From IMG/VR virus record IMGVR_UViG_3300047560_001038, positions 1 to 61,743 of that record: DNA of 61,743 nt. One strand, 5' to 3'. Made by a program: the position numbers and the translations under genes. Source of the DNA: a virus. Lineage: Duplodnaviria > Caudoviricetes. Below are positions 1-11,180 of this stretch, piece after piece; the stretch's first letter is position 1, and each line of letters opens with the position of its first letter. Under the pieces are notes generated by a model that searched no databases, was not told the DNA's origin, and worked only from the letters and a program-made list of their open reading frames with translations.

Positions 1-89
1 TTGTCACAGTCGCACCAAGCGACATCGTTTTCACAAGCCATACAAACGTTTCCGTAGTATTCGTCTCGGAAGTCTTCATATTCAAACAT
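1..89 (-). CDS. Small Cys-rich hypothetical protein, truncated by the window edge (MFEYEDFRDEYYGNVCMACENDVAWCDCD...)
   Basis: Read manually; strong SD AGAAAGGA upstream of ATG at 89; CxxC and CxC motifs. Confidence 0.7.
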   Translation of the reverse strand, partial: MFEYEDFRDEYYGNVCMACENDVAWCDCD

Positions 90-116
90 TCTTTGTCCTT
101 TCTAGAAACCTGAGAT

Positions 117-171
117 TTATTTGCTCTGAGAGGCTCATACCCTTTGGGTCTTATTTGCTCTGAGAGGCTCA
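117..171 (-). repeat. 21-bp direct repeat x2 (TGAGCCTCTCAGAGCAAATAA on minus strand) in a 5' leader
   Basis: Identical copies at 117-137 and 151-171. Confidence 0.9.
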
Positions 172-206
172 CTCTCTTTGGTTTCTCTGTTTATCTTTAT
201 GTCTTC

Positions 207-228
207 ATTATAATCGAGACCACCGACA
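207..228 (-). promoter_or_regulatory. Promoter TGTCGG-N10-TATAAT (PafBC/RecA-NDp-like)
   Basis: Exact match to the TGTCGG-N10-TANNNT consensus, upstream of the leader and the ORF starting at 89. Confidence 0.7.
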
Positions 229-320
229 TATAACTAGCCAAAATGGGCTATTTTGCAACATTATTCAAAAATGTGCAAGAAATTTGCATTCTTAACGTAA
301 AGACGCAACAATCTTGCGTT

Positions 321-352
321 TTGCCCGAGCCTGTGGATAACTCTGTGGACAA
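321..352. promoter_or_regulatory. Tandem DnaA-box pair 1 (TTATCCACA and TTGTCCACA on minus strand) within a 27-bp repeat
   Basis: TGTGGATAA 332-340 and TGTGGACAA 344-352; TTGCCCGAGCCTGTGGATAACTCTGTG recurs at 853-879. Confidence 0.7.
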
Positions 353-404
353 CATTTGTTGCTGTTCACAACATTAGAGCACCCTTGTGGGGAGTGCCGA
401 TTGG

Positions 405-746
405 TTACGGCATCTCATTCACACGGAGAGGGTTACGGTCATAGTTACGAGGGCTAGACATTACCGAGAGGCAATTCACCTTGCCCTGTGCTTGGTTACG
501 AACACAAGAGGCACAAGAGTCACCGTCTACGATGATAGAACCCATACGGCTAGTGAGAGGGCTACCGTAGTAACGCTCACCATCAGTGTACATACGCTGT
601 ACATCAGTGTATCCACCAAGTGAACCATAGCCAGGACGACCGCCAGGGTGATTACGAGTTTCTGACTTGCCACAGTGTGAGCAAGTGATAACCATACTAC
701 GGAGGTTGATAATTCTTTGTACATTTTCATTCATTTTATTTCTCAT
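405..746 (-). CDS. Hypothetical Cys-rich (CxxC...CxxC) early protein; start may be 734
   Basis: ORF directly downstream of the promoter at 767-788; CSHC and CASC motifs. Confidence 0.65.
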   Translation of the reverse strand: MRNKMNENVQRIINLRSMVITCSHCGKSETRNHPGGRPGYGSLGGYTDVQRMYTDGERYYGSPLTSRMGSIIVDGDSCASCVRNQAQGKVNCLSVMSSPRNYDRNPLRVNEMP

Positions 747-766
747 TTCTTTTTCTTTATGTATTC

Positions 767-788
767 ATTGTAACATCGACCTACGACA
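767..788 (-). promoter_or_regulatory. Promoter TGTCGT-N10-TACAAT (PafBC-like)
   Basis: Same spacing as 207-228, and a similar downstream GAA(G/T)ACATAAAGA. Confidence 0.65.
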
Positions 789-852
789 TCAAACCCCTGT
801 TTTTCGGGAAAATGGAGGATTCTTGCGTAAAACGTAAAAAGACGCAAAAAAA

Positions 853-884
853 TTGCCCGAGCCTGTGGATAACTCTGTGTATAA
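853..884. promoter_or_regulatory. Tandem DnaA-box pair 2 (TTATCCACA and TTATACACA on minus strand)
   Basis: TGTGGATAA 864-872 and TGTGTATAA 876-884, followed by an almost pure A/T tract at 886-909. Confidence 0.7.
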
Positions 885-929
885 GTTTTTTATTTATTTT
901 ATTATTTATCGGCGTGTCGTGTTGTTAGA

Positions 930-951
930 TGTCAGGGGTAGCGTATAGAGT
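930..951 (+). promoter_or_regulatory. Promoter TGTCAG-N10-TAGAGT (PafBC-like)
   Basis: Same spacing; precedes SD and ATG at 985. Confidence 0.55.
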
Positions 952-984
952 ATAGACATACCAAGAGATAAGGAAACAAACAAA

Positions 985-1086
985 ATGGAAATCACAATCG
1001 TCATCATCGGAGCACTCACCGTCATCGCTGTCGGAGTAGCAATTGGAAGTCTCCTCAGCTGGTGGGTACACAAGGACATCTACTAA
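985..1086 (+). CDS. 33-aa single-TM membrane peptide (MEITIVIIGALTVIAVGVAIGSLLSWWVHKDIY)
   Basis: Read manually; SD AAGGA; hydrophobic helix. Confidence 0.7.
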   Translation: MEITIVIIGALTVIAVGVAIGSLLSWWVHKDIY

Positions 1087-1094
1087 CGGTTAGA

Positions 1095-1116
1095 TGTCTG
1101 ACCCCTACCCTATACT
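1095..1116 (+). promoter_or_regulatory. Promoter TGTCTG-N10-TATACT (PafBC-like)
   Basis: Same spacing; precedes SD AAAGGA and ATG at 1142. Confidence 0.6.
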
Positions 1117-1141
1117 GATAACAACAAACAAAGGACAAACA

Positions 1142-1303
1142 ATGGAACTCTACGCAGTAGGAATCGAATACGAAGGACTCTTCGCAGTATTCTCCACGGA
1201 GGAAAAGGCTAAGGCATATGTTGCTGAACAGGAAAAGCGTTGGGATATGGTAGGTTGCTCTGACTACTACATCGAAACAATCACGGTAGACGAAAACGAA
1301 TAA
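1142..1303 (+). CDS. 53-aa hypothetical phage protein (MELYAVG...VFSTEEKAKAY)
   Basis: SD AAAGGA; the ATG at 1094 lies inside the promoter, so 1142 is preferred. Confidence 0.75.
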   Translation: MELYAVGIEYEGLFAVFSTEEKAKAYVAEQEKRWDMVGCSDYYIETITVDENE

Positions 1304-1312
1304 GGACAAAGA

Positions 1313-1426
1313 ATGAACAACACACAACGACTCCGTTACTTGGAACTAATCACTATCGCTAAGAGTGATGTGATGACAGCAAGCGAGTTCGATGAACTGC
1401 TAGGCTTGGAAAAACTAAAGCGATAG
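1313..1426 (+). CDS. 37-aa hypothetical protein (MNNTQRLRYLELITIAK...)
   Basis: Read manually; SD TAAGGA. Confidence 0.65.
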   Translation: MNNTQRLRYLELITIAKSDVMTASEFDELLGLEKLKR

Positions 1427-1543
1427 GGGCAGTACCCCTAGCAGTGTGCTCACTATGTTTTGCGAAAATAGTACACACGATCATGCATCATTCACATTAA
1501 TAAAAAATTCAGATTTTCATCAAATTGAAAAATAAAAATTTTT

Positions 1544-1636
1544 TCAGAAATCGTACAAATGCCAACAGCCATCCCAGCATTCACAATCTAGGATTTTAGG
1601 TTTTTCGGGGGTATCTGGATCAGTCTTTGTAGTCAT
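1544..1636 (-). CDS. 30-aa Cys-rich peptide (MTTKTDPDTPEKPKILDCECWDGCWHLYDF)
   Basis: Read manually; overlaps the end of the upstream minus-strand ORF. Confidence 0.4.
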   Translation of the reverse strand: MTTKTDPDTPEKPKILDCECWDGCWHLYDF

Positions 1637-1742
1637 CAAACATATCCTGATCTAACTTAAATGCAATACCTATAGCCAATATGCCAATAGCGATAGCTGC
1701 TACAGGAGCACACAATATGATAAGAAGTGCGGTATTTGTCAA
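1620..1742 (-). CDS. 40-aa single-TM membrane peptide (TTG start)
   Basis: TTGA start/stop coupling with 1739-1918; hydrophobic segment ALLIILCAPVAAIAIGILAIGIAF. Confidence 0.55.
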   Translation of the reverse strand: MTNTALLIILCAPVAAIAIGILAIGIAFKLDQDMFDDYKD

Positions 1743-1918
1743 GGTAGATCACCAGGTTCTAACGAAGAACTCTTAATGATCCCATATTGTACAAGAAGGG
1801 CATTAATAACCTTTCTTGATGCTTTGAACTCACGAGCAATCTGTCGTGATGTCTTGCCAAGCTCAACAAACTGTGTTTGGAGCATATTCTGTGTGAGAAT
1901 TGTGTTGTAGTATGTCAT
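1739..1918 (-). CDS. 59-aa small HTH-like protein, leaderless
   Basis: TGCTATACT 6 nt upstream of ATG; GKTSRQIAREFKASRKVINALLVQYGI resembles 56096-56254. Confidence 0.7.
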   Translation of the reverse strand: MTYYNTILTQNMLQTQFVELGKTSRQIAREFKASRKVINALLVQYGIIKSSSLEPGDLP

Positions 1919-1981
1919 GTTTATAGTATAGCAAATTTTCGGAGGTAAATCAATCAGCTTCTGCTGATGGCGTAGCCGTAT

Positions 1982-2179
1982 TTACCATTTATGCTCAGGA
2001 CATCTAGCTCTCTCTAACTTAGTCTTCATACGCATAAAACACTTACATACGGTACATGTTTGAGAACTTTTGTGAAACAATGGACATTCCTGACATATCG
2101 CCAAACGCTCCTGTTGTAATTCTTTGGTACTACGCTTTTCATTTGGATTTAGTAGGTCCCAAGGTCGCACTTCGCTCAT
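1982..2179 (-). CDS. Small Zn-binding protein (DUF6171-like), leaderless
   Basis: RLAICQECP...TCTVCKCFMRMKTKL...CPEHKW pattern; TATAAT 6 nt upstream of ATG 2179. Confidence 0.75.
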   Translation of the reverse strand: MSEVRPWDLLNPNEKRSTKELQQERLAICQECPLFHKSSQTCTVCKCFMRMKTKLERARCPEHKW

Positions 2180-2281
2180 ATGTCTATTATACAACAATTA
2201 AGTTTTTCGCCGTACAACCCAGTGTTTTGCTATATTTTAAAAACCCAACATTTAAGATTTTCTACACATATTTCCCCATAT

Positions 2282-2322
2282 GGTGTTTGGTACAAAGCGG
2301 TGTTTGGGGATGGGGTGTTTGG
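2282..2322 (+). repeat. GGTGTTTGG x3 in non-coding DNA
   Basis: Copies at 2282, 2299 and 2314. Confidence 0.7.
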
Positions 2323-2430
2323 TTACTCCACGCCGCCGATTTTTCGCTTCGCTCAAATGACACTACATCTAGTTATTGTCGAAGAACTTTACATCAAGAT
2401 ATTGTAAAAGTAGTTTATAATTGAAACATC

Positions 2431-2700
2431 ATGGATTTTGCAACTTTACAAATGATCTTTGGAATCACAATTAGTATTGGTACTGTTATTACTCTTGTTG
2501 CGTCAGGTGTAAAGTGGTTAGTAAAACATTACTTTGATGATATTAAAAAAGAGCTTAAGCCCAATAGTGGTTCTTCACTAAAAGATCAAGTGACAAGACT
2601 TGAAAAGGAAATGGCTCAAGCAGAAGCACTTCGTAAAGAAATGAATACAAAAATAGATCACATGTATGAGATTCTACTTGATTTTGTATCCAAGAAGTAA
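2431..2700 (+). CDS. Holin-like membrane protein (N-terminal TM plus coiled coil)
   Basis: N-terminal TM helix; ELKPNSGSSLKDQVTRLE motif typical of actinophage lysis-cassette proteins; near the cell-wall hydrolase. Confidence 0.6.
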   Translation: MDFATLQMIFGITISIGTVITLVASGVKWLVKHYFDDIKKELKPNSGSSLKDQVTRLEKEMAQAEALRKEMNTKIDHMYEILLDFVSKK

Positions 2701-2713
2701 TATACTTGTCCTT

Positions 2714-2740
2714 AAGCCTTCGGCTTTGATTTGTTTCTTT
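2714..2740 (+). terminator. Probable intrinsic terminator
   Basis: AAGCC-TTC-GGCTT hairpin followed by a T-rich tail. Confidence 0.5.
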
Positions 2741-2803
2741 AGGGAGACTATCTTGTAGGTTGTTTTTCTTACTTCCTCTCCCCCCTACCCCCCAAGTTAT
2801 ATA

Positions 2804-2832
2804 AATATAACAAGAAAATGGAACCTTGTCAA
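2804..2832 (-). promoter_or_regulatory. Canonical sigma-A promoter TTGACA-N17-TATATT pointing towards the holin-like gene
   Basis: Perfect -35 and 17-bp spacer. Confidence 0.6.
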
Positions 2833-2840
2833 GTCCATTG

Positions 2841-2880
2841 TCGTAACTTTTCGTAAATATACGTAACATTTCGTAACAAT
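2841..2880 (+). repeat. Four 10-bp phased repeats ((T/A)CGTAA....)
   Basis: tcgtaacttt tcgtaaatat acgtaacatt tcgtaacaat. Confidence 0.8.
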
Positions 2881-2980
2881 TGGTATTTGCGTATTTCTTA
2901 AACTCTGATATACTGGTGTAACAACACCTTAACCTATAAGGTGTTTTTCTCTTTATAAAAGAGGAGGAGGTATCTGAAAT

Positions 2981-3676
2981 ATGAAAACAAATCCTAGAGT
3001 AGTAAAGAGCTTTTTAACAAGTTCTATAGTTTCATTTATATTGTTTGGCACTTCATTTTGTGGAGTGTCAAATGCAAATGCAGAGTCTGAAGACTTTAGC
3101 ATTTCTAGGTCAGTCTATAGTGAGGCTGAGGTACGAGAGGCCATCCAGTCTGCGAGGGATGAATACAACGCAGAATATAACAAAATATATAAGCAAGTAG
3201 TTCAAGACGAAATGAACAGAATTGCAGATCCAAACTCAACTCAATCAAAGTTTGTCAAATTTGCATTGCAGTTTGAAGGAACACCATATTGGTATGGGGG
3301 ATCAACTCCATCTGGTTTTGATTGTTCTGGATTTGTAGGATATGTCATTAAGCATGAACTAGGAATTGATGTTAGACACTCTGCTTCTTCACAGATGCAA
3401 TTAGGTGTTAAGGTATCAGATCCACTACCTGGCGATCTTATAGGCTGGGGATGGGGTAATTATTTTCACCACGTTGGTATTTACATTGGCGACGGTAAAG
3501 AAATAGATGCTCTGAATCCATACCGTGATCTATATGTTCGTGATGTAAAAACAATGACAGCATGGATGGGAAAACCAACCTATGTCAGAATAATTGAAAA
3601 GAACAGAAACTTCAATGCAGATAGAATTACAAAAAGAATCATGGATAATGGTTTTGCGTTTACATTTGCACAATAG
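2981..3676 (+). CDS. NlpC/P60 (C40) peptidoglycan endopeptidase with signal peptide
   Basis: GTPYWYGG...GFDCSG and HVGIYIG catalytic motifs; N-terminal signal peptide ending ANA; SD GAGGAGG. Confidence 0.9.
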   Translation: MKTNPRVVKSFLTSSIVSFILFGTSFCGVSNANAESEDFSISRSVYSEAEVREAIQSARDEYNAEYNKIYKQVVQDEMNRIADPNSTQSKFVKFALQFEGTPYWYGGSTPSGFDCSGFVGYVIKHELGIDVRHSASSQMQLGVKVSDPLPGDLIGWGWGNYFHHVGIYIGDGKEIDALNPYRDLYVRDVKTMTAWMGKPTYVRIIEKNRNFNADRITKRIMDNGFAFTFAQ

Positions 3677-4288: not shown

Positions 4289-4999
4289 ATGACAGAATCA
4301 ATAGGCGGAGCATACTCAGTAATCATACCATCGCTAGACGATGCTGCTGATATTCAGGTAGCCTTAAAGTACCTTCACTATGGTCAAGAAACTGCTTGGA
4401 CTACAAAGCCAGAAGGAAACACCAGTATTGCTGGATACCTTTATACAATTGAGCAAACACTAGACAACATTACTTCTGTTGGAACAATTACTTCTGGCAC
4501 TTGGAATGGTAGCGTAATTGCTGGTGCTTATGGTGGTACTGGAATTGCAAATACAGGAAAAACTATTACCCTTGGCGGAAACCTACAAACAGGTGCTGCA
4601 TTAAACATTGATACAACATCAGCAGAGAATGACGATGTTCTTGTTTATGATTCTGGAACGTCAACCTGGAAACCAGGTAAGAACAGATCAATCAACGATA
4701 TTCATGAGAATACTGATAACTATACCTTAGCACTTACAGATCAAAATGATCTTGTCAAAATGACAAAATCTGTTGCAGTTACACTTACAGTTCCAAAGAA
4801 CTCGTCTGTTGCATTCCCAATCAGAACAGAAATTAACATTGTACAATCTGGCGATGGTCAGGTGACTATTTCGCCAGTAGATGGAGACGTTACTATTCAC
4901 GGTACTCCAGGACTTAAGCTTCGTGATAAGTGGTCACTTGTTACCCTGATCAAAATTGACACTAACGAATGGATAGCGACAGGAGACCTTGCCTCCTAA
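4289..4999 (+). CDS. Fibre/adaptor protein
   Basis: ITSVGTITSGTWNG and YGGTG fibre motifs; C-terminal domain paralogous to the 14717 protein. Confidence 0.7.
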   Translation: MTESIGGAYSVIIPSLDDAADIQVALKYLHYGQETAWTTKPEGNTSIAGYLYTIEQTLDNITSVGTITSGTWNGSVIAGAYGGTGIANTGKTITLGGNLQTGAALNIDTTSAENDDVLVYDSGTSTWKPGKNRSINDIHENTDNYTLALTDQNDLVKMTKSVAVTLTVPKNSSVAFPIRTEINIVQSGDGQVTISPVDGDVTIHGTPGLKLRDKWSLVTLIKIDTNEWIATGDLAS

Positions 5000-7900
5000 T
5001 GCCTATTCTCGGAATTACTGCCAGTGCTGTAGTAGCAGCCTATAAAATGGTTGTTGCTACAATTGGGTCACGCATTTTTACATCATACAACGGAACAGAC
5101 ATTTCATATGGGAATACACCAAGTTCGTATAAGGTAGAGGCAGTTAATGGAACATGGGTAAGTGCTAATGCAGCAACCTACAAGGGTGGGACCATTGCTA
5201 ATGCACAAAACTTTATTTCTTATACTTCTGCACTATATTATCAATCAACCGACGGTGTGACTTGGAGTAGTGGGATACTTCCAAATACTGTTGGTTCAAT
5301 AATGGATATGAAATATAATTCAAATTTAGGAAAAACAGTACTATTGCAGGGATCAACATCACCACGAGCAATTTATGAATCAACAGATTTAATTACATGG
5401 ACAACAACTGTTACTGGAATAGCAAACACAACATACAAGGCTATATTACAAGACAACAATACATATATAGCTCAGCAATCTGGAAAGCTAGTTAGTTGGA
5501 TATCATCTGGTGGTACATGGGTAACACTATCATCTACAACTCTTTCTCAGACTGTAAATGAAATGCTTTATGTTAATGACGGTAATATCTATACTGTTGG
5601 ATATGCCCCACATATAGCAAAAGTACAGCATGTTGGTGGAACAATGTCATGGACAACATTTGCAGACTATCCAGGCGGTATTGGCGGAGCTGGAGTATCT
5701 AACGTACAGGTAATGTCAATAAAATATGGGAATGGAAGATATGTAGCACCATATCTTGACACATCAGAAGATGCTATTGGTGCAGTATCATCAACAGATG
5801 GCGTAACGTGGGTATCAGCATGGATTGGTGCTGGAGCAGCACTTCCTGGATCTGCAGTATCTGTTAGTAACTGCTTTGCATTTGAATTTTATAACGGATT
5901 GTTTTATTCTGCTGGTTATGACGTTAATACAGATTCCATAGCAATATTCACATCACTGGATGGAATTACATGGATTCCTGGAAACTCTTTTTCTTCATAT
6001 TTGCCTAGTTCTGGGGCAGATGCAGATGCTATGGGGTCAATTGTGTTTAAGGATAATGTTGCCCTAGCAGTATATAATCCATCTGCTGGTAGCTCACAAC
6101 TATACCTATCTAGTCAGGCAAACACAATATCTCCATCTATAGCCACAACATCTTTGTCATGGATAACAACTTCTCTAGCATCCAGTTCATCAATTGCCGA
6201 TGAAGATTATAATACTGGATGGTATGATAAATACCTAAATTCTCCAATCAGACATTTTTCTACAAGTACAACAGACTATCTCGCATATAGTAATGGATTA
6301 TCGTGGGTAACTATAATGAGTCGTGACATATCAAATATGTTTGGGACATATCTGTACAATGGTTCAAGACATGTTGTTGTATTTCAAAAAGCAAGTGATC
6401 AGCCAATATACTCAACAGATGGAATTTATTGGTTAACAGCAAGTGGATATACAGGTGCTCATTCTGTATCAACTAATTTGCCAGCATCTACCGTTAAAGC
6501 AGCAGCAAGCTCAACACACTTTATAGTTGGTTCACGTGGTTCTGGTAGCACTGGTGGCACAAGAATGGTAATAAGTACTGACGGTGCTGTATGGACAAGC
6601 CTTTCACTACCAGGAGTTACCTGGGGATTTAGCACTGAGCCCATAGATGTTATATATGCAAATGGATTTTGGACAATCCTTCTTGAGAATGGGAGGGTAT
6701 ATACTTCAACAGATACTACAACATGGACAAGCTCAGCTCCAGGACTTACTTTATCAGACACAGTATCACGCAAAAATGGACTAGTATCAGACAACTCTTA
6801 TATTTACGCAATTAGCAGAAGCTCTACTGCTGGCCTAGCTGTCCCTATGTTCAGATCAACTGATGCAATAACTTGGACAACATATGCTTCAGCTGCATAT
6901 GGTAGCTTTAGAGATATTGTAAAAGCTGGAGACACCTGGTATTCTTCGGTAACAAATAGCGGAAAACTGTATGTATCTACAGACGCAACAACATGGACAA
7001 GTGTTGGAGTTGGTGCAGATACATTTATCGATTCAACATACTCGTCTCTATTTACTGATGGAAAAGACTTATTCTTTGTTGGAGCTGACGGACTTGTAAA
7101 ACAAGCAGAAGTCTCTAGTCAGAATCAACTTACAGGCTTTAATGTAAAAGATATTCTTTATACTCCAAAAGAAACATCTGGTTTGTCAAAAGACACATAC
7201 CTTCTTTCTGGAAAAAATCTTCTTAAAGCAAATGAGGCTATGTCTTGGACAAGCGTGATTAATTCTGCGGTATTTGGAAAATATGGAGCAAATAAGGCAG
7301 AGTTTGTAAATTCTAAATTCTATGTTGGTGGAGCAGGTTCAAGAGTCATATACTCAACAGATAGTATTTCATGGTCTCCAATGAAGTCGCATTCAGTAAA
7401 AGACCTGGTGCCAATTGATCAAGCTATAAATCCAACTCCAACAGTTGGAATATCCTATGCAAACTCAACTCTTGGTATTGCAACAGCAAGCAGATTTATG
7501 GATACTGTACAGGACTCAAGATTATTTAGATACCGTTCTGGATATGAAGATACAGATACCTTACAAGAAATCCAGTCTTATAATTTTACAGTGTGGACAA
7601 CATCTGCTGTTGCATCAATTGCTATGCAAGACCTAACTTACCTTGACCACCAAAAACTTTGGGTATCTAATGGAAACTCTGGTGTAATTAAATACTCTAC
7701 CGATTTAATTACTTGGACAACCGTAACAACATCACAACTCGGAACTAATAATACTACAAAGGCAAAAATTATTGGTGGACCACAAAGAGTTAAGTATATT
7801 TATGTTGCTGGAGATTCTGGAAGAATTGTTAGATCAACAAACGGAATTGCTTGGGCTACAGCAACATCAGCAGCTACAACTGCACATGTTAATAGATTTG

Positions 7901-9780
7901 CAGTCTCTGATGATGGTGTAATTGTTGCAGCTGCAGGTGTTGCAGTTCAAGGTGTTGCACATTACGTTAGATCAACAGATGGAACAACGTGGACCACAGG
8001 ACTTATTAGTGCTGCAGGTACAAACGTTCGTACTGGATCAATTGATTATGGTCCATCATATCCAAATGGTCCAAAAGTATTTGCAGTACTAACTGGAACT
8101 GCTGCAGTACCAATTATTAAAAAGTCAACTGATGGAATTACTTGGACTACAACCACTGCAGCAGGTGGCACTACTGAATCAATTGCATACTCAAAAAACA
8201 TTAATCAGTGGGTTGCATCAAATGGATCAGACTTCAAGGCATCAACCGATCTGACAACATGGGTTACACTTATTTCTTCCGTTGGTGGTGCAAATAATCA
8301 AATTAATGAAGTTCCAGGATATATATTGCTTACAAGTGGATCTGCATTAACATATGGAAAGTACTCTACAAATGGTGTGACCTGGACAACATTCTATTTG
8401 CCAACATCTTCATCATTCAGAGGTATTGATGTTGATACTACAAATAAAACAATAGCCATGATGGATAATGTGACAACTGCATATAGAACATCTTTAACAT
8501 GGATAACCAACGTAACATCACTTTCCACAAATACTGATGGCACAAAGCACATAATTGTTGCTAGTGGAACACCATTAAGATCTAGTGATATGGTTGATTG
8601 GACAGATTATGCTTATACATCTGGAGCAATAGTAAATGCCAGAAAAATAAAGTATCTTGGTGGATTATTCATTGGTGCTGGCGGTAATGGAAAATCGTAT
8701 ATTTATAAATCAACAAATGGTTCGGCATGGACTTCTTCGCAACCATCTACTGTTGCAAACTCTGATGGTTCATCAATCGCATATGATGGAACAACATATG
8801 TTGCCACAATTGATAGTGGTGGAACAGCAAACAGTATTTATTATTCAACAAACCTTACAGCATGGACAACCATTACGCTTGCTACAACTCCTGGTCAAGT
8901 AAACGATATTCATTATGATGTAGATAAGTTTGTTTCAGTTACTTCAACTGGAAAGGTGTTCTATTCTACTAATGGAACAACTGGATGGACTGCTGGAACA
9001 TCAAATACTGCATCAGCACTTTACTTTGTTAATAATCAAAATGAACTTGGAACTGGAACAGGATGGATTGCGTCTGGAATAGTATTTAGAACTTCAACAA
9101 ATGGTGTTACTTGGACAACAAGATCTGCACCAACAGCAGGATTCTGGGGTGCAAGTGCTGATGCTATTGGTAGATTTATTTGGAAGAATCAGTTAGTTCT
9201 TGTTGATGGAACAGATAATCTTTTTGCACTAACAACAGACGGAATTACGTGGGATACAACATCGATAGTAGTTGCAAATAAAAATTATCCAGCTATAGAT
9301 AATGCTTTTGCTGCAGGTAATAAAATCTTCTCAGTAGATAAAACAACCAATCCAACTATGACACTTCTTGAGTATACAACAGATGGTACAACTTGGGTTT
9401 CAGTAAGTGCAAGTTGGAGTTCGGCTATAAATGCATCAGTTTATGGTGGAGGCATTTATGTTGGACATAATGCTGGAATTGGATCTGCAAGCAATTCAAG
9501 TTCTACAACTGTAAGATCAGTAAATCCTGGTTTTATTGCACCACAGGTAAATGACCATGCAAATGGAATATATGTTGGAAATGAAGGAATTTATTCAGAT
9601 TCTTCAACATATGGTGGATTACAAAGACTTGTATCTGGTGTATTCTCACATATCTCGTATAATGCAAAAAATGGATATGTTGCAACTGGAAATTCTGCAA
9701 TATATAAATCAACAGATGGCGTTGTGTGGACATCAACCTCAATCTCAACAGCAGGGCAATTCTCAATCGGTGGAGTTTAA
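4999..9780 (+). CDS. Large Ser/Thr-rich multi-beta-propeller (Asp-box/BNR repeat) receptor-binding or decoration protein
   Basis: Dozens of S-T-[DN]-G-x-T-W motifs; TAATG coupling gives start MPILGITASA. Confidence 0.8.
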   Translation: MPILGITASAVVAAYKMVVATIGSRIFTSYNGTDISYGNTPSSYKVEAVNGTWVSANAATYKGGTIANAQNFISYTSALYYQSTDGVTWSSGILPNTVGSIMDMKYNSNLGKTVLLQGSTSPRAIYESTDLITWTTTVTGIANTTYKAILQDNNTYIAQQSGKLVSWISSGGTWVTLSSTTLSQTVNEMLYVNDGNIYTVGYAPHIAKVQHVGGTMSWTTFADYPGGIGGAGVSNVQVMSIKYGNGRYVAPYLDTSEDAIGAVSSTDGVTWVSAWIGAGAALPGSAVSVSNCFAFEFYNGLFYSAGYDVNTDSIAIFTSLDGITWIPGNSFSSYLPSSGADADAMGSIVFKDNVALAVYNPSAGSSQLYLSSQANTISPSIATTSLSWITTSLASSSSIADEDYNTGWYDKYLNSPIRHFSTSTTDYLAYSNGLSWVTIMSRDISNMFGTYLYNGSRHVVVFQKASDQPIYSTDGIYWLTASGYTGAHSVSTNLPASTVKAAASSTHFIVGSRGSGSTGGTRMVISTDGAVWTSLSLPGVTWGFSTEPIDVIYANGFWTILLENGRVYTSTDTTTWTSSAPGLTLSDTVSRKNGLVSDNSYIYAISRSSTAGLAVPMFRSTDAITWTTYASAAYGSFRDIVKAGDTWYSSVTNSGKLYVSTDATTWTSVGVGADTFIDSTYSSLFTDGKDLFFVGADGLVKQAEVSSQNQLTGFNVKDILYTPKETSGLSKDTYLLSGKNLLKANEAMSWTSVINSAVFGKYGANKAEFVNSKFYVGGAGSRVIYSTDSISWSPMKSHSVKDLVPIDQAINPTPTVGISYANSTLGIATASRFMDTVQDSRLFRYRSGYEDTDTLQEIQSYNFTVWTTSAVASIAMQDLTYLDHQKLWVSNGNSGVIKYSTDLITWTTVTTSQLGTNNTTKAKIIGGPQRVKYIYVAGDSGRIVRSTNGIAWATATSAATTAHVNRFAVSDDGVIVAAAGVAVQGVAHYVRSTDGTTWTTGLISAAGTNVRTGSIDYGPSYPNGPKVFAVLTGTAAVPIIKKSTDGITWTTTTAAGGTTESIAYSKNINQWVASNGSDFKASTDLTTWVTLISSVGGANNQINEVPGYILLTSGSALTYGKYSTNGVTWTTFYLPTSSSFRGIDVDTTNKTIAMMDNVTTAYRTSLTWITNVTSLSTNTDGTKHIIVASGTPLRSSDMVDWTDYAYTSGAIVNARKIKYLGGLFIGAGGNGKSYIYKSTNGSAWTSSQPSTVANSDGSSIAYDGTTYVATIDSGGTANSIYYSTNLTAWTTITLATTPGQVNDIHYDVDKFVSVTSTGKVFYSTNGTTGWTAGTSNTASALYFVNNQNELGTGTGWIASGIVFRTSTNGVTWTTRSAPTAGFWGASADAIGRFIWKNQLVLVDGTDNLFALTTDGITWDTTSIVVANKNYPAIDNAFAAGNKIFSVDKTTNPTMTLLEYTTDGTTWVSVSASWSSAINASVYGGGIYVGHNAGIGSASNSSSTTVRSVNPGFIAPQVNDHANGIYVGNEGIYSDSSTYGGLQRLVSGVFSHISYNAKNGYVATGNSAIYKSTDGVVWTSTSISTAGQFSIGGV

Positions 9781-10501: not shown

Positions 10502-11180
10502 GCCACATTTTAATATTATAATTGCTACTCCTGGAAATAATTTTACTCAGGGGTACGTTAGAAGTTTGCTTCAGACTGTATCTGCTATTAGTGCAGAGGG
10601 TCTATCCTGGAACTTCCTTAACCAGTCAAGCTCTCTCGTATCTATGGCACGAGAAATGACAATCGCTGGACCTGGTGTAAATGACCCATCAATTACAGAA
10701 CCATTTGCAGGACAGTTTACTTATGACAAGATCATTTGGATTGATTCAGACATTGAATGGACAGTTGCAGACTTCTTTAAACTATACAAGTCAGACTATG
10801 ACATTGTTTCTGGATGCTATCTAATGCAAGATCGTCACACACCCATCTACGAAGCTTATCGTGGCCCAATGATGTCGGAAGACGAAATTCTTAGTCGCAC
10901 AGAGCCATTTAAGGTTGCTGGCATTGGTTTTGGATTTGTGGCAATGAAGTCTGGAGTGTTTGAAAATATTCCTCGTCCCTGGTTTGGTCCAATTGGTATG
11001 CCAATCTCTGAGGGAAGTACAGAAATGCAAATGCTACTTATTGGAGAAGATCTTTCTTGGTCAACTAAAGCAATTCAGAGTGGATTTGAAATTTGGACAG
11101 ATCCATCAGTCCACGTAGTTCATAATAAGTCGTTTAATATTTTTTGGAAAGATCAGATCGAAAAGATGAAGAATGGATAA
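10494..11180 (+). CDS. Glycosyltransferase, GT-A fold; tandem paralog of the previous gene
   Basis: Same motifs (FTYDKIIWIDSDI, GFGF, GED). Confidence 0.8.
   Translation: MDKPHFNIIIATPGNNFTQGYVRSLLQTVSAISAEGLSWNFLNQSSSLVSMAREMTIAGPGVNDPSITEPFAGQFTYDKIIWIDSDIEWTVADFFKLYKSDYDIVSGCYLMQDRHTPIYEAYRGPMMSEDEILSRTEPFKVAGIGFGFVAMKSGVFENIPRPWFGPIGMPISEGSTEMQMLLIGEDLSWSTKAIQSGFEIWTDPSVHVVHNKSFNIFWKDQIEKMKNG

Follow-up and report, generated by a model that had tools for sequence, protein, structure and literature searches.

A conserved class of PafBC-like promoters arrayed ahead of small genes in a clade of uncultured phages

The IMG/VR record IMGVR_UViG_3300047560_001038 is a Caudoviricetes sequence that we analysed over its entire length of 61,743 bases (hereafter the window). 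Close to its left end lie four promoters, each carrying the pattern TGTC-N12-TANNNT and each near a small open reading frame (ORF), whose architecture resembles that of actinobacterial DNA-damage promoters dependent on the activator PafBC. We confirm this observation and find that the four sites belong to a promoter class that is almost certainly real and conserved: related uncultured phages carry 14-30 such promoters in a single block of small genes. Who reads these promoters is less firmly settled by their sequence, and on balance we lean towards host PafBC acting together with the sigma factor SigA. Identity of the motif and lack of a phage reader of a known type make host PafBC with SigA-RNA polymerase the simplest reading.

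Results

Four promoters at the edge of the window

The sequence-only reading had reported four TGTC-N12-TANNNT sites, two on each strand, and we recovered all of them with the coordinates and sequences that it had quoted (Table 1). Its remaining descriptive statements also stood: an A precedes TGTC in four of four sites, a small ORF is found 20-110 nucleotides (nt) from each, and a -35 element is missing. A TTGACA/TATAAT scan of positions 1-3000 gave eight sigma-70-like sites, none of which coincides with the four, and the TTGACA-like hexamer of a canonical SigA promoter was not found 16-18 nt 5' of the -10 at any of them. Each of the small ORFs behind the four sites has an AAGGA-type ribosome site. 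Ten nucleotides separate TGTCnn from the -10 in every case, while the two bases after TGTC are GG at site 1 only and GT, AG and TG at the others. The four sites share a wider pattern, GTTnnATGTC-N12-TAnAnT-N4-ACA, and the window has five copies of GTT..ATGTC, of which four are these promoters. Sites 1 and 2 lie within a duplicated unit and are therefore not independent.

Orthologues of sites 1, 2 and 4 were recognisable in L001 and L002, two IMG/VR contigs that we reached through the 113-residue ORF behind site 2. Promoter 1 corresponds to TGTCGGTGGTCACAATTATAAT at L001 position 10485. Promoter 2 has its counterpart at L001 position 9959, with 21 of 22 bases identical and a diverged upstream flank. 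The counterparts of promoter 4, TGTCTGACCTATCCCCTATACT, stand ahead of the same genes in L001 (9643) and L002 (9630).

Taken alone, the window gives a modest case for enrichment. It holds 15 TGTC-N12-TANNNT sites against 12.72 expected, a number equalled or exceeded in 28 of 100 shuffles, and the 11 sites other than the four promoters are intragenic, 10 of them antisense. A cluster of four sites in 910 bp was obtained in 9 of 1000 mononucleotide shuffles. The case was decided by the relatives, in which the enrichment predicted for the small-ORF block was indeed found: L001 has 28 of the sites over 20.3 kb, where 3.46 would be expected, and L002 has 12 over 12.8 kb, where 2.56 would be expected, nearly all on one strand and each ahead of a small ORF.

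Promoter arrays in related phages

A scan of IMG/VR for TGTCGGTGGTC-N5-TATAAT returned 36 stretches from 30 contigs, compared with seven single hits for the same words at N7. In 27 of the 36 stretches at least five TGTC-N12-TANNNT sites lie on one strand, and counts at other spacings are low. Five large relatives (G001-G005, 90-109 kb, 83-91% complete) confine their sites to one 10-14 kb block on one strand, with almost none elsewhere (Table 1). Of this block the window holds only the border, where two promoters point leftward past the contig end and another two belong to a short divergent unit; the same border layout is seen in L001, G002 and G003. Because the contig breaks at position 1, most of the small-gene block is absent from the window.

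The clade consensus reads GTTnnA-TGTCGGTGGTC-N5-TATAAT-N6-A. In a logo of 318 unique sites from the relatives, for which the search itself imposed TGTC and TA...T, the positions that follow TGTC are G (55%, with A in 29%), G (84%), T (78%), G (76%), G (73%), T (74%) and C (48%), and the -10 is T-A-T77-A88-A73-T (subscripted values in percent), with a G at -14 in 44% of sites. Upstream of TGTC the only signals are an A at -29 (67%) and GTT at -34 to -32 (53-64%), the latter lying outside the published PafBC motif. The idea that GTT is nothing more than the U-tract of a terminator upstream was borne out only in part, as 24% of the upstream 44-mers fold at or below -8 kcal/mol versus 11% of shuffles. 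Downstream, T or C is followed by A (79%) at the seventh base past the -10; two leaderless L001 genes have their ATG on this A, which supports it as the start. Spacing is strict: in 389 kb of pooled sequence TGTCNG-N10-TANNNT occurs 323 times, versus 17 times at N9 and 15 at N11. When sites were collected by the other half of the motif only, TGTC was present in 167 of 168. A minor subclass, TGTC(A/T)GACC, includes window site 4 and is also found in G001-G004.

Match to the host PafBC motif

The available parts of three papers (PMC8635444; PMC6789036; PMC11804915) describe PafBC-dependent (RecA-NDp) promoters of Actinobacteria as being read by sigma adaptation. In the portion of PMC8635444 at hand, the in vivo consensus is tGTCgg(N10)tA(N3)T, with the 3' half as the SigA -10 and the 5' half at -23 to -28; these promoters lack a -35, and the helix-turn-helix (HTH) of PafB reads their strictly conserved GTC triplet. 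According to the papers on PafBC, the activator is constitutively present and is activated by single-stranded DNA (ssDNA) on its WYL domains. The likeness to PafBC promoters noticed in the sequence-only reading was upheld, since the upstream phage element equals the published consensus in sequence, spacing and position. With the start set at the conserved A, phage TGTCGG spans -28 to -23, and the GTC triplet, the exact N10 and the lack of a -35 consensus all agree with RecA-NDp promoters.

We then looked at bacterial genomes. Of 34 Actinomycetota genomes, 20 carry TGTC-N12-TANNNT in front of recA, at a distance of 74-205 nt from the RecA domain, and each control (DNA read backwards, antisense strand, inside recA) gave 0 of 34. 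The recA sites favour R-G-t-G after TGTC and include GACCC variants like the second phage subclass, both phage subclasses (GGTG... and nGACC...) being found among recA promoters. In five high-G+C Actinomycetota genomes TGTCRGTG-N8-TANNNT occurs 51, 26, 13, 21 and 217 times, versus 5, 0, 1, 0 and 0 in the reversed control, and all five encode a PafC-type HTH (E <= 3e-35). Nine low-G+C Actinomycetota genomes (1.3-2.6 Mb) have the motif at control level; PafC was found in one of them, which is the sole one of the nine with a site upstream of recA. Among these five high- and nine low-G+C genomes, the motif occurs as a regulon only in those with PafC. The motif thus marks DNA-damage genes at the level of the phylum, a result that concerns the phylum and not the own host of this phage. 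By its sequence, the phage element is a strong version of the host DNA-damage promoter.

The exact phage consensus was rare in bacteria: 185,579 species genomes gave 36 single sites, nine of which come from Actinomycetota with 67-76% G+C. At most of the nine, a leaderless ORF begins 6-7 nt past the -10, and at several a cGAACa..tGTTCg-like sequence comes next, which we take to resemble a LexA box. A Pfam scan of eight ORFs downstream of exact copies assigned two to DUF222, two to WYL only and one to TetR_N, and left three without a match. Small WYL-only proteins (167-179 residues; L065 5347-5850, minus strand, and L080 2929-3468, plus strand; Spirillospora and Actinomadura) are leaderless and sit directly behind perfect TGTCGGTGGTC-N5-TATAAT promoters. 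The genome with 217 motif copies (G010, an uncultured actinomycetote, 0 in the control) exceeds the other four by 4-17 times; its copies often come in pairs 49 nt apart and may be a repeat family carrying PafBC-type promoters.

Candidate readers in the phage and the head of the block

As a fallback, the sequence-only reading had proposed that the phage encodes its own PafBC-like activator. This found no support: no WYL domain was detected in the window and G001-G005, no PafC-type HTH in G000-G004, and no Sigma70_r4 over the cut-off in the phage contigs. The lack of a WYL- or PafC-like gene in the window or in the 83-91% complete relatives argues against a phage-encoded PafBC. Neither a tyrosine nor a serine integrase was found in the six contigs (window and G001-G005), and for this reason a prophage-induction reading was dropped.

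A conserved head of three genes precedes the block, coding for a DUF6171 zinc protein, an HTH protein of 57-61 residues and a small membrane protein (window 1739-2197, minus strand; L001 8530-9154; L130 1153-1802; L133 1474-1872). Its first two genes are leaderless and follow extended -10 promoters of the form TGnTATA(A/C)T-N6-ATG; they are probably immediate-early genes. This makes doubtful the earlier claim that the TGTC promoters drive the earliest genes of the phage, as the conserved leaderless pair looks more immediate-early. The HTH protein had no homologue among 50,697 phage records, no Pfam hit better than E 0.03, no hit to a PDB sequence better than E 0.13 and no Foldseek hit at E <= 0.001. 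Weak matches to its predicted fold include sigma region 4 and the DNA-binding domains of DeoR/SorC, all with E about 1 or worse. In G001 (91% complete, 14-16 sites) no HTH homologue was detected at E <= 0.01, and the head of its block lacks a gene of this kind. There, opposite-strand ORFs of 251, 185 and 197 residues (L143 10684-13346) replace the HTH/zinc head; by eye they resemble a methyltransferase and two 2OG-Fe(II)-oxygenases. Homologues of the DUF6171 zinc protein are also encoded by phages that infect cyanobacteria and proteobacteria, so it is unlikely to be a specific reader.

Origin of the window and its probable host

The window is a linear viral contig estimated by CheckV to be 57% complete, with a G+C content of about 40%. 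Its left end interrupts a minus-strand ORF and its right end falls within nrdF; these cut ORFs indicate that it is a fragment. A metagenome scan with its first 36 bases, aimed at the missing left part, gave no match, nor did its positions 1-2400 as DNA against the 50,697 phage records, and its NlpC/P60 protein had no relative in IMG/VR. The structural module is of siphovirus type (portal, protease, tape measure, minor tail proteins), and a DnaE-type polymerase and a class Ib NrdE are also encoded. Among the tail-fibre-like genes, positions 4969-9780 (plus strand) code for a protein of 1603 residues, rich in S-T-D-G-x-T-W repeats that look BNR/Asp-box-like by eye and probably a receptor-binding fibre.

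The closest named phages are Streptomyces phages of the family Stanwilliamsviridae, with 54-57% amino-acid identity in DnaE and 46-49% in the portal. These Streptomyces phages were rejected as carriers of the motif, the hits of five cultured ones in TGTCGG-N10-TANNNT scans (4) being no more than those of the control (7). WhiB scored over the cut-off in four of four large relatives and, among 14 control genomes, only in Corynebacterium. WhiB together with named relatives that infect Streptomyces makes an actinobacterial host likely. The DNA of the region is matched mainly by freshwater or other aquatic metagenome runs, most of the stretch being present in two runs only, possibly the source sample. 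Mycobacterium smegmatis, the species named in the sequence-only reading, is not supported as the host: the G+C is about 40%, the matching runs are from freshwater, and the nearest named relatives are Streptomyces phages at only 46-57% identity, five of which lack the motif. As PafC and the motif are scarce in the nine low-G+C genomes, the natural host would have to belong to a PafBC-bearing lineage.

Genes, leader and repeats of the block

Protein families say little about the block (Table 1). L001 has 22 promoter-ORF units encoding 29-340 residues, and two of ten L001 proteins scanned had a match (DUF7178 and DUF932), the other eight having none. With this profile the block is presumably a host-takeover or anti-defence set. 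The L001 homologue of the ORF cut by the left end of the window sits behind its own TGTC promoter (site 9806). The tandem repeats in the predicted leader of transcript 1 have a related doubled element in the orthologous L001 leader, at about 10530-10580.

Intergenic DNA at the head of the block contains DnaA-box-like words, TTATCCACAGG, which in the window form pairs with TTGTCCACA or TTATACACA. L001 has six copies (9866, 10358, 11069, 11090, 12719 and 19880) versus 0.32 expected, and the window has two versus 1.09 expected. Possible roles are as an origin of the phage, as sites that titrate DnaA or as the site of a regulator.

Table 1. Promoters, genes and repeats at the left edge of the window, and promoter blocks of the large relatives
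Contig	Feature	Position	Strand	Remarks
Window	Promoter 1	207..228	-	TGTCGGTGGTCTCGATTATAAT; perfect match to clade consensus TGTCGGTGGTC-N5-TATAAT; predicted start A at 200
Window	Promoter 2	767..788	-	TGTCGTAGGTCGATGTTACAAT; predicted start A at 760; predicted driver of the 113-residue ORF
Window	Promoter 3	930..951	+	TGTCAGGGGTAGCGTATAGAGT; weakest consensus match; predicted start A at 958; predicted driver of the 33-residue membrane ORF
Window	Promoter 4	1095..1116	+	TGTCTGACCCCTACCCTATACT; GACC subclass; predicted start A at 1123; predicted driver of the DUF7336 and 37-residue ORFs
Window	Small ORF, MFEYEDFRDEYY...	3..89	-	Runs off left contig end; first gene of the block part lost from the window
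Window	Two tandem 31-nt repeats, 90% identity	117-147, 151-181	-	Contain GAGCCTCTCAGAGCAAATAA; in predicted 111-nt leader of transcript 1
Window	DnaA-box-like pair TTATCCACAGG + TTGTCCACA	330..352	-	Upstream of promoter 1
Window	113-residue ORF, CxxC...CxxC	405..746	-	No family match; 49-52% identical to L001/L002 proteins
Window	Second DnaA-box-like copy	862-884	-	Between promoters 2 and 3
Window	33-residue hydrophobic ORF	985..1086	+	
Window	53-residue ORF, DUF7336	1142..1303	+	E 4.1e-06, 27 bits, cut-off 25; sole family match in the block part of the window
Window	37-residue ORF	1313..1426	+	Predicted co-transcription with DUF7336 ORF; same AAGGACAAAGAATG ribosome site; L002 homologue behind site 9630
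Window	59-residue three-helix HTH protein	1739..1918	-	Leaderless, TTGATT-17-TGcTATACT; AlphaFold2 pLDDT (predicted local distance difference test) 86; candidate phage regulator
Window	DUF6171-like zinc-ribbon protein	1982..2182	-	Leaderless (TATAAT-N6-ATG at 2182); first head gene
G001	Block	59.3-68.9 kb		14 of 14 sites
G002	Block	58.2-68.2 kb	+	22 of 24 sites on the forward strand
G003	Block	69.5-80.8 kb		21 sites
G004	Block	33.3-47.5 kb	-	29 of 30 sites on the reverse strand
G005	Block	78.7-86.0 kb		6 consensus-like sites near contig end

Discussion

We regard the four sites as what remains visible of a dedicated class of promoters, which would control a block of small phage genes. Each promoter consists of a strong SigA-type TATAAT-like -10, a predicted start A 7 nt downstream, and an invariant TGTC plus GGTGGTC at -28 to -18 in the place of a -35, an arrangement that agrees in layout and sequence with the '-26 element' of actinobacterial PafBC promoters. 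The host housekeeping RNA polymerase would start there only with the WYL activator PafBC lodged between sigma region 4 and the DNA, that is, by sigma adaptation. PafBC would always be in the cell and be switched on by ssDNA, so that entry, replication or nuclease processing of the phage DNA, by producing ssDNA, would fire the whole block together. PafBC may thus be the reader, infection may activate it, and the block may be early or delayed-early in its timing.

One alternative is that a loose pattern happened to cluster in A+T-rich intergenic DNA and that its copies have no function in common, which would agree with the near-expected count over the whole window. The probability of this alternative is now practically nil, as it is refuted by the enrichment in L001 and L002 and the orthologous sites kept there, by the rarity of the four-site cluster in shuffles, by the clade arrays and their strict spacing, by unselected positions common to 318 unique sites, and by the presence of TGTC in nearly all sites ascertained without it. 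Another explanation takes the sites as functional and denies TGTC an activating role: SigA alone would fire the near-consensus -10, and TGTC would be a shut-off operator, or the array a decoy soaking up PafBC and blunting the DNA-damage response of the host. The phage -10 is indeed nearer to TATAAT than the host TANNNT, often with the G at -14; basal PafBC-independent transcription in vitro is described in the available part of PMC11804915, and an array of 14-30 putative high-affinity sites on every genome copy could sequester a constitutive factor of low abundance. However, operators or decoys would tolerate other positions, whereas no sites occur away from a -10, and the spacing constraint of one nucleotide, together with one site per gene, fits an element read in the frame of RNA polymerase. 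The head promoters, which need no activator (TGn extended -10), are moreover built differently from those of the block. We consider this explanation improbable.

Less improbable, though still unlikely in our judgement, is that a phage factor reads the TGTCGGTGGTC element, the best candidate being the small HTH protein, which would be expressed first and make the block delayed-early; the likeness to PafBC sites would then be mimicry or convergence. The HTH gene has a promoter that needs no activator (TGnTATAMT-N6-ATG; in the window TTGATT-17-TATACT with TG), and its product is specific to the clade and confidently modelled as three helices, with sigma region 4 among the weak matches to this model. 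Yet G001 has the block and lacks a detectable homologue, it is not obvious how a lone HTH of 59 residues could stand in for the -35 contact, and none of its family or structure matches is significant enough to give a function. An unrelated reader would be very unlikely to reproduce the host site at eight bases and with its exact spacing.

Several points nevertheless weigh against PafBC as the reader. The HTH gene adjoins the block upstream and points the same way as the block, both in the window and in four of the five large relatives (G002, G003, G004 and G005). Compared with the published host motif, the phage consensus covers more positions and varies less, with -21 to -18, the A at -29 and GTT at -34 to -32 conserved, and at position 10 it has T in 74% of sites while C is found in 17 of 19 recA sites; these differences could reflect either an optimal site or a different reader. 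This phage comes from freshwater and has about 40% G+C, and the nine small low-G+C Actinomycetota genomes sampled mostly lack both PafC and the motif. In the Streptomyces phages BillNye, Paradiddles, Tomas, Gilson and Yaboi (127-134 kb), TGTCGG-N10-TANNNT was found 0-1 times each, four in total versus seven in the reversed control; with five cultured relatives devoid of it, the feature belongs to the uncultured clade. The action of PafBC requires ssDNA, according to the available text of PMC11804915, and its supply by infection is an assumption. Finally, no RNA run was among the runs matching this DNA, and promoter activity, starts and timing are predictions.

Weighing these points, we still favour host PafBC as the reader. 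A broader proposal, to which we would give slightly less than an even chance, is that a widespread lytic clade of freshwater actinophages hands the switch of a 10-14 kb gene block, presumably of host-takeover genes, to the ssDNA-sensing PafBC. Each gene would have an optimised copy of the DNA-damage promoter, and the dozens of high-affinity sites on every genome copy would also draw PafBC off the repair regulon of the host. If this holds, such phages would be the first known case of a virus making use of sigma adaptation, PafBC would be the first WYL regulator linked to a phage programme rather than to phage defence, and viruses could use the PafBC sensor as a trigger of infection or replication. 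So far, PafBC and sigma adaptation are known from the chromosomal response to DNA damage only, and WYL regulators are otherwise tied to anti-phage defence; the literature searched treats PafBC and other WYL regulators under these two topics. No description of PafBC-type promoters on a phage was found in the literature on PafBC, RecA-NDp and sigma adaptation, supplements of the papers being outside the search. A 2025 study by Rafique et al. in ACS Infect Dis, cited in PMC12848934, reportedly concerns pafBC and mycobacteriophage resistance, and may bear on the need of phages for PafBC. The more than 300 natural, graded promoter variants would offer material for dissecting the -26 element, the signature may serve to assign uncultured phages to PafBC-bearing actinobacterial hosts, and the arrays would mark the 14-30 small proteins of each block as host-takeover or anti-defence candidates.

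The promoter class can be placed among known systems. In the middle promoters of T4, a MotA box at -30 accompanies a -10 and AsiA/MotA appropriate sigma; there as well, the -35 gives way to a box in the -30 region and an adaptor links sigma region 4 to the DNA, a comparison with sigma appropriation that is drawn for PafBC itself in the available part of PMC8635444. The T4 adaptors are encoded by the phage and remodel sigma, whereas in the present clade we recognise no such phage protein and the box is the same as a host activator's site. The five Stanwilliamsviridae scanned, the nearest named relatives, are without this promoter class. LexA or CI-type repressors also place phage and prophage genes under the SOS response of the host, as repressor-based induction switches of temperate phages. 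These systems likewise couple viral transcription to the sensing of DNA damage by the host, but in the six contigs no integrase accompanies the promoters, the element is of the activator type and a whole gene block would be controlled. Closest are the chromosomal PafBC promoters, which share with the phage set the 22-nt tGTCgg-N10-tAnnnT with its invariant GTC, the element at -28 to -23, the SigA-type -10 and the missing -35, and, in the case of recA, R at position 5 followed by GTG. The phage set differs in standing on a lytic-looking phage as tandem arrays with one promoter per small gene, in a near-perfect TATAAT as the -10, in keeping GGTC at -21 to -18 besides the A at -29 and GTT at -34 to -32, and in having T rather than C at position 10.

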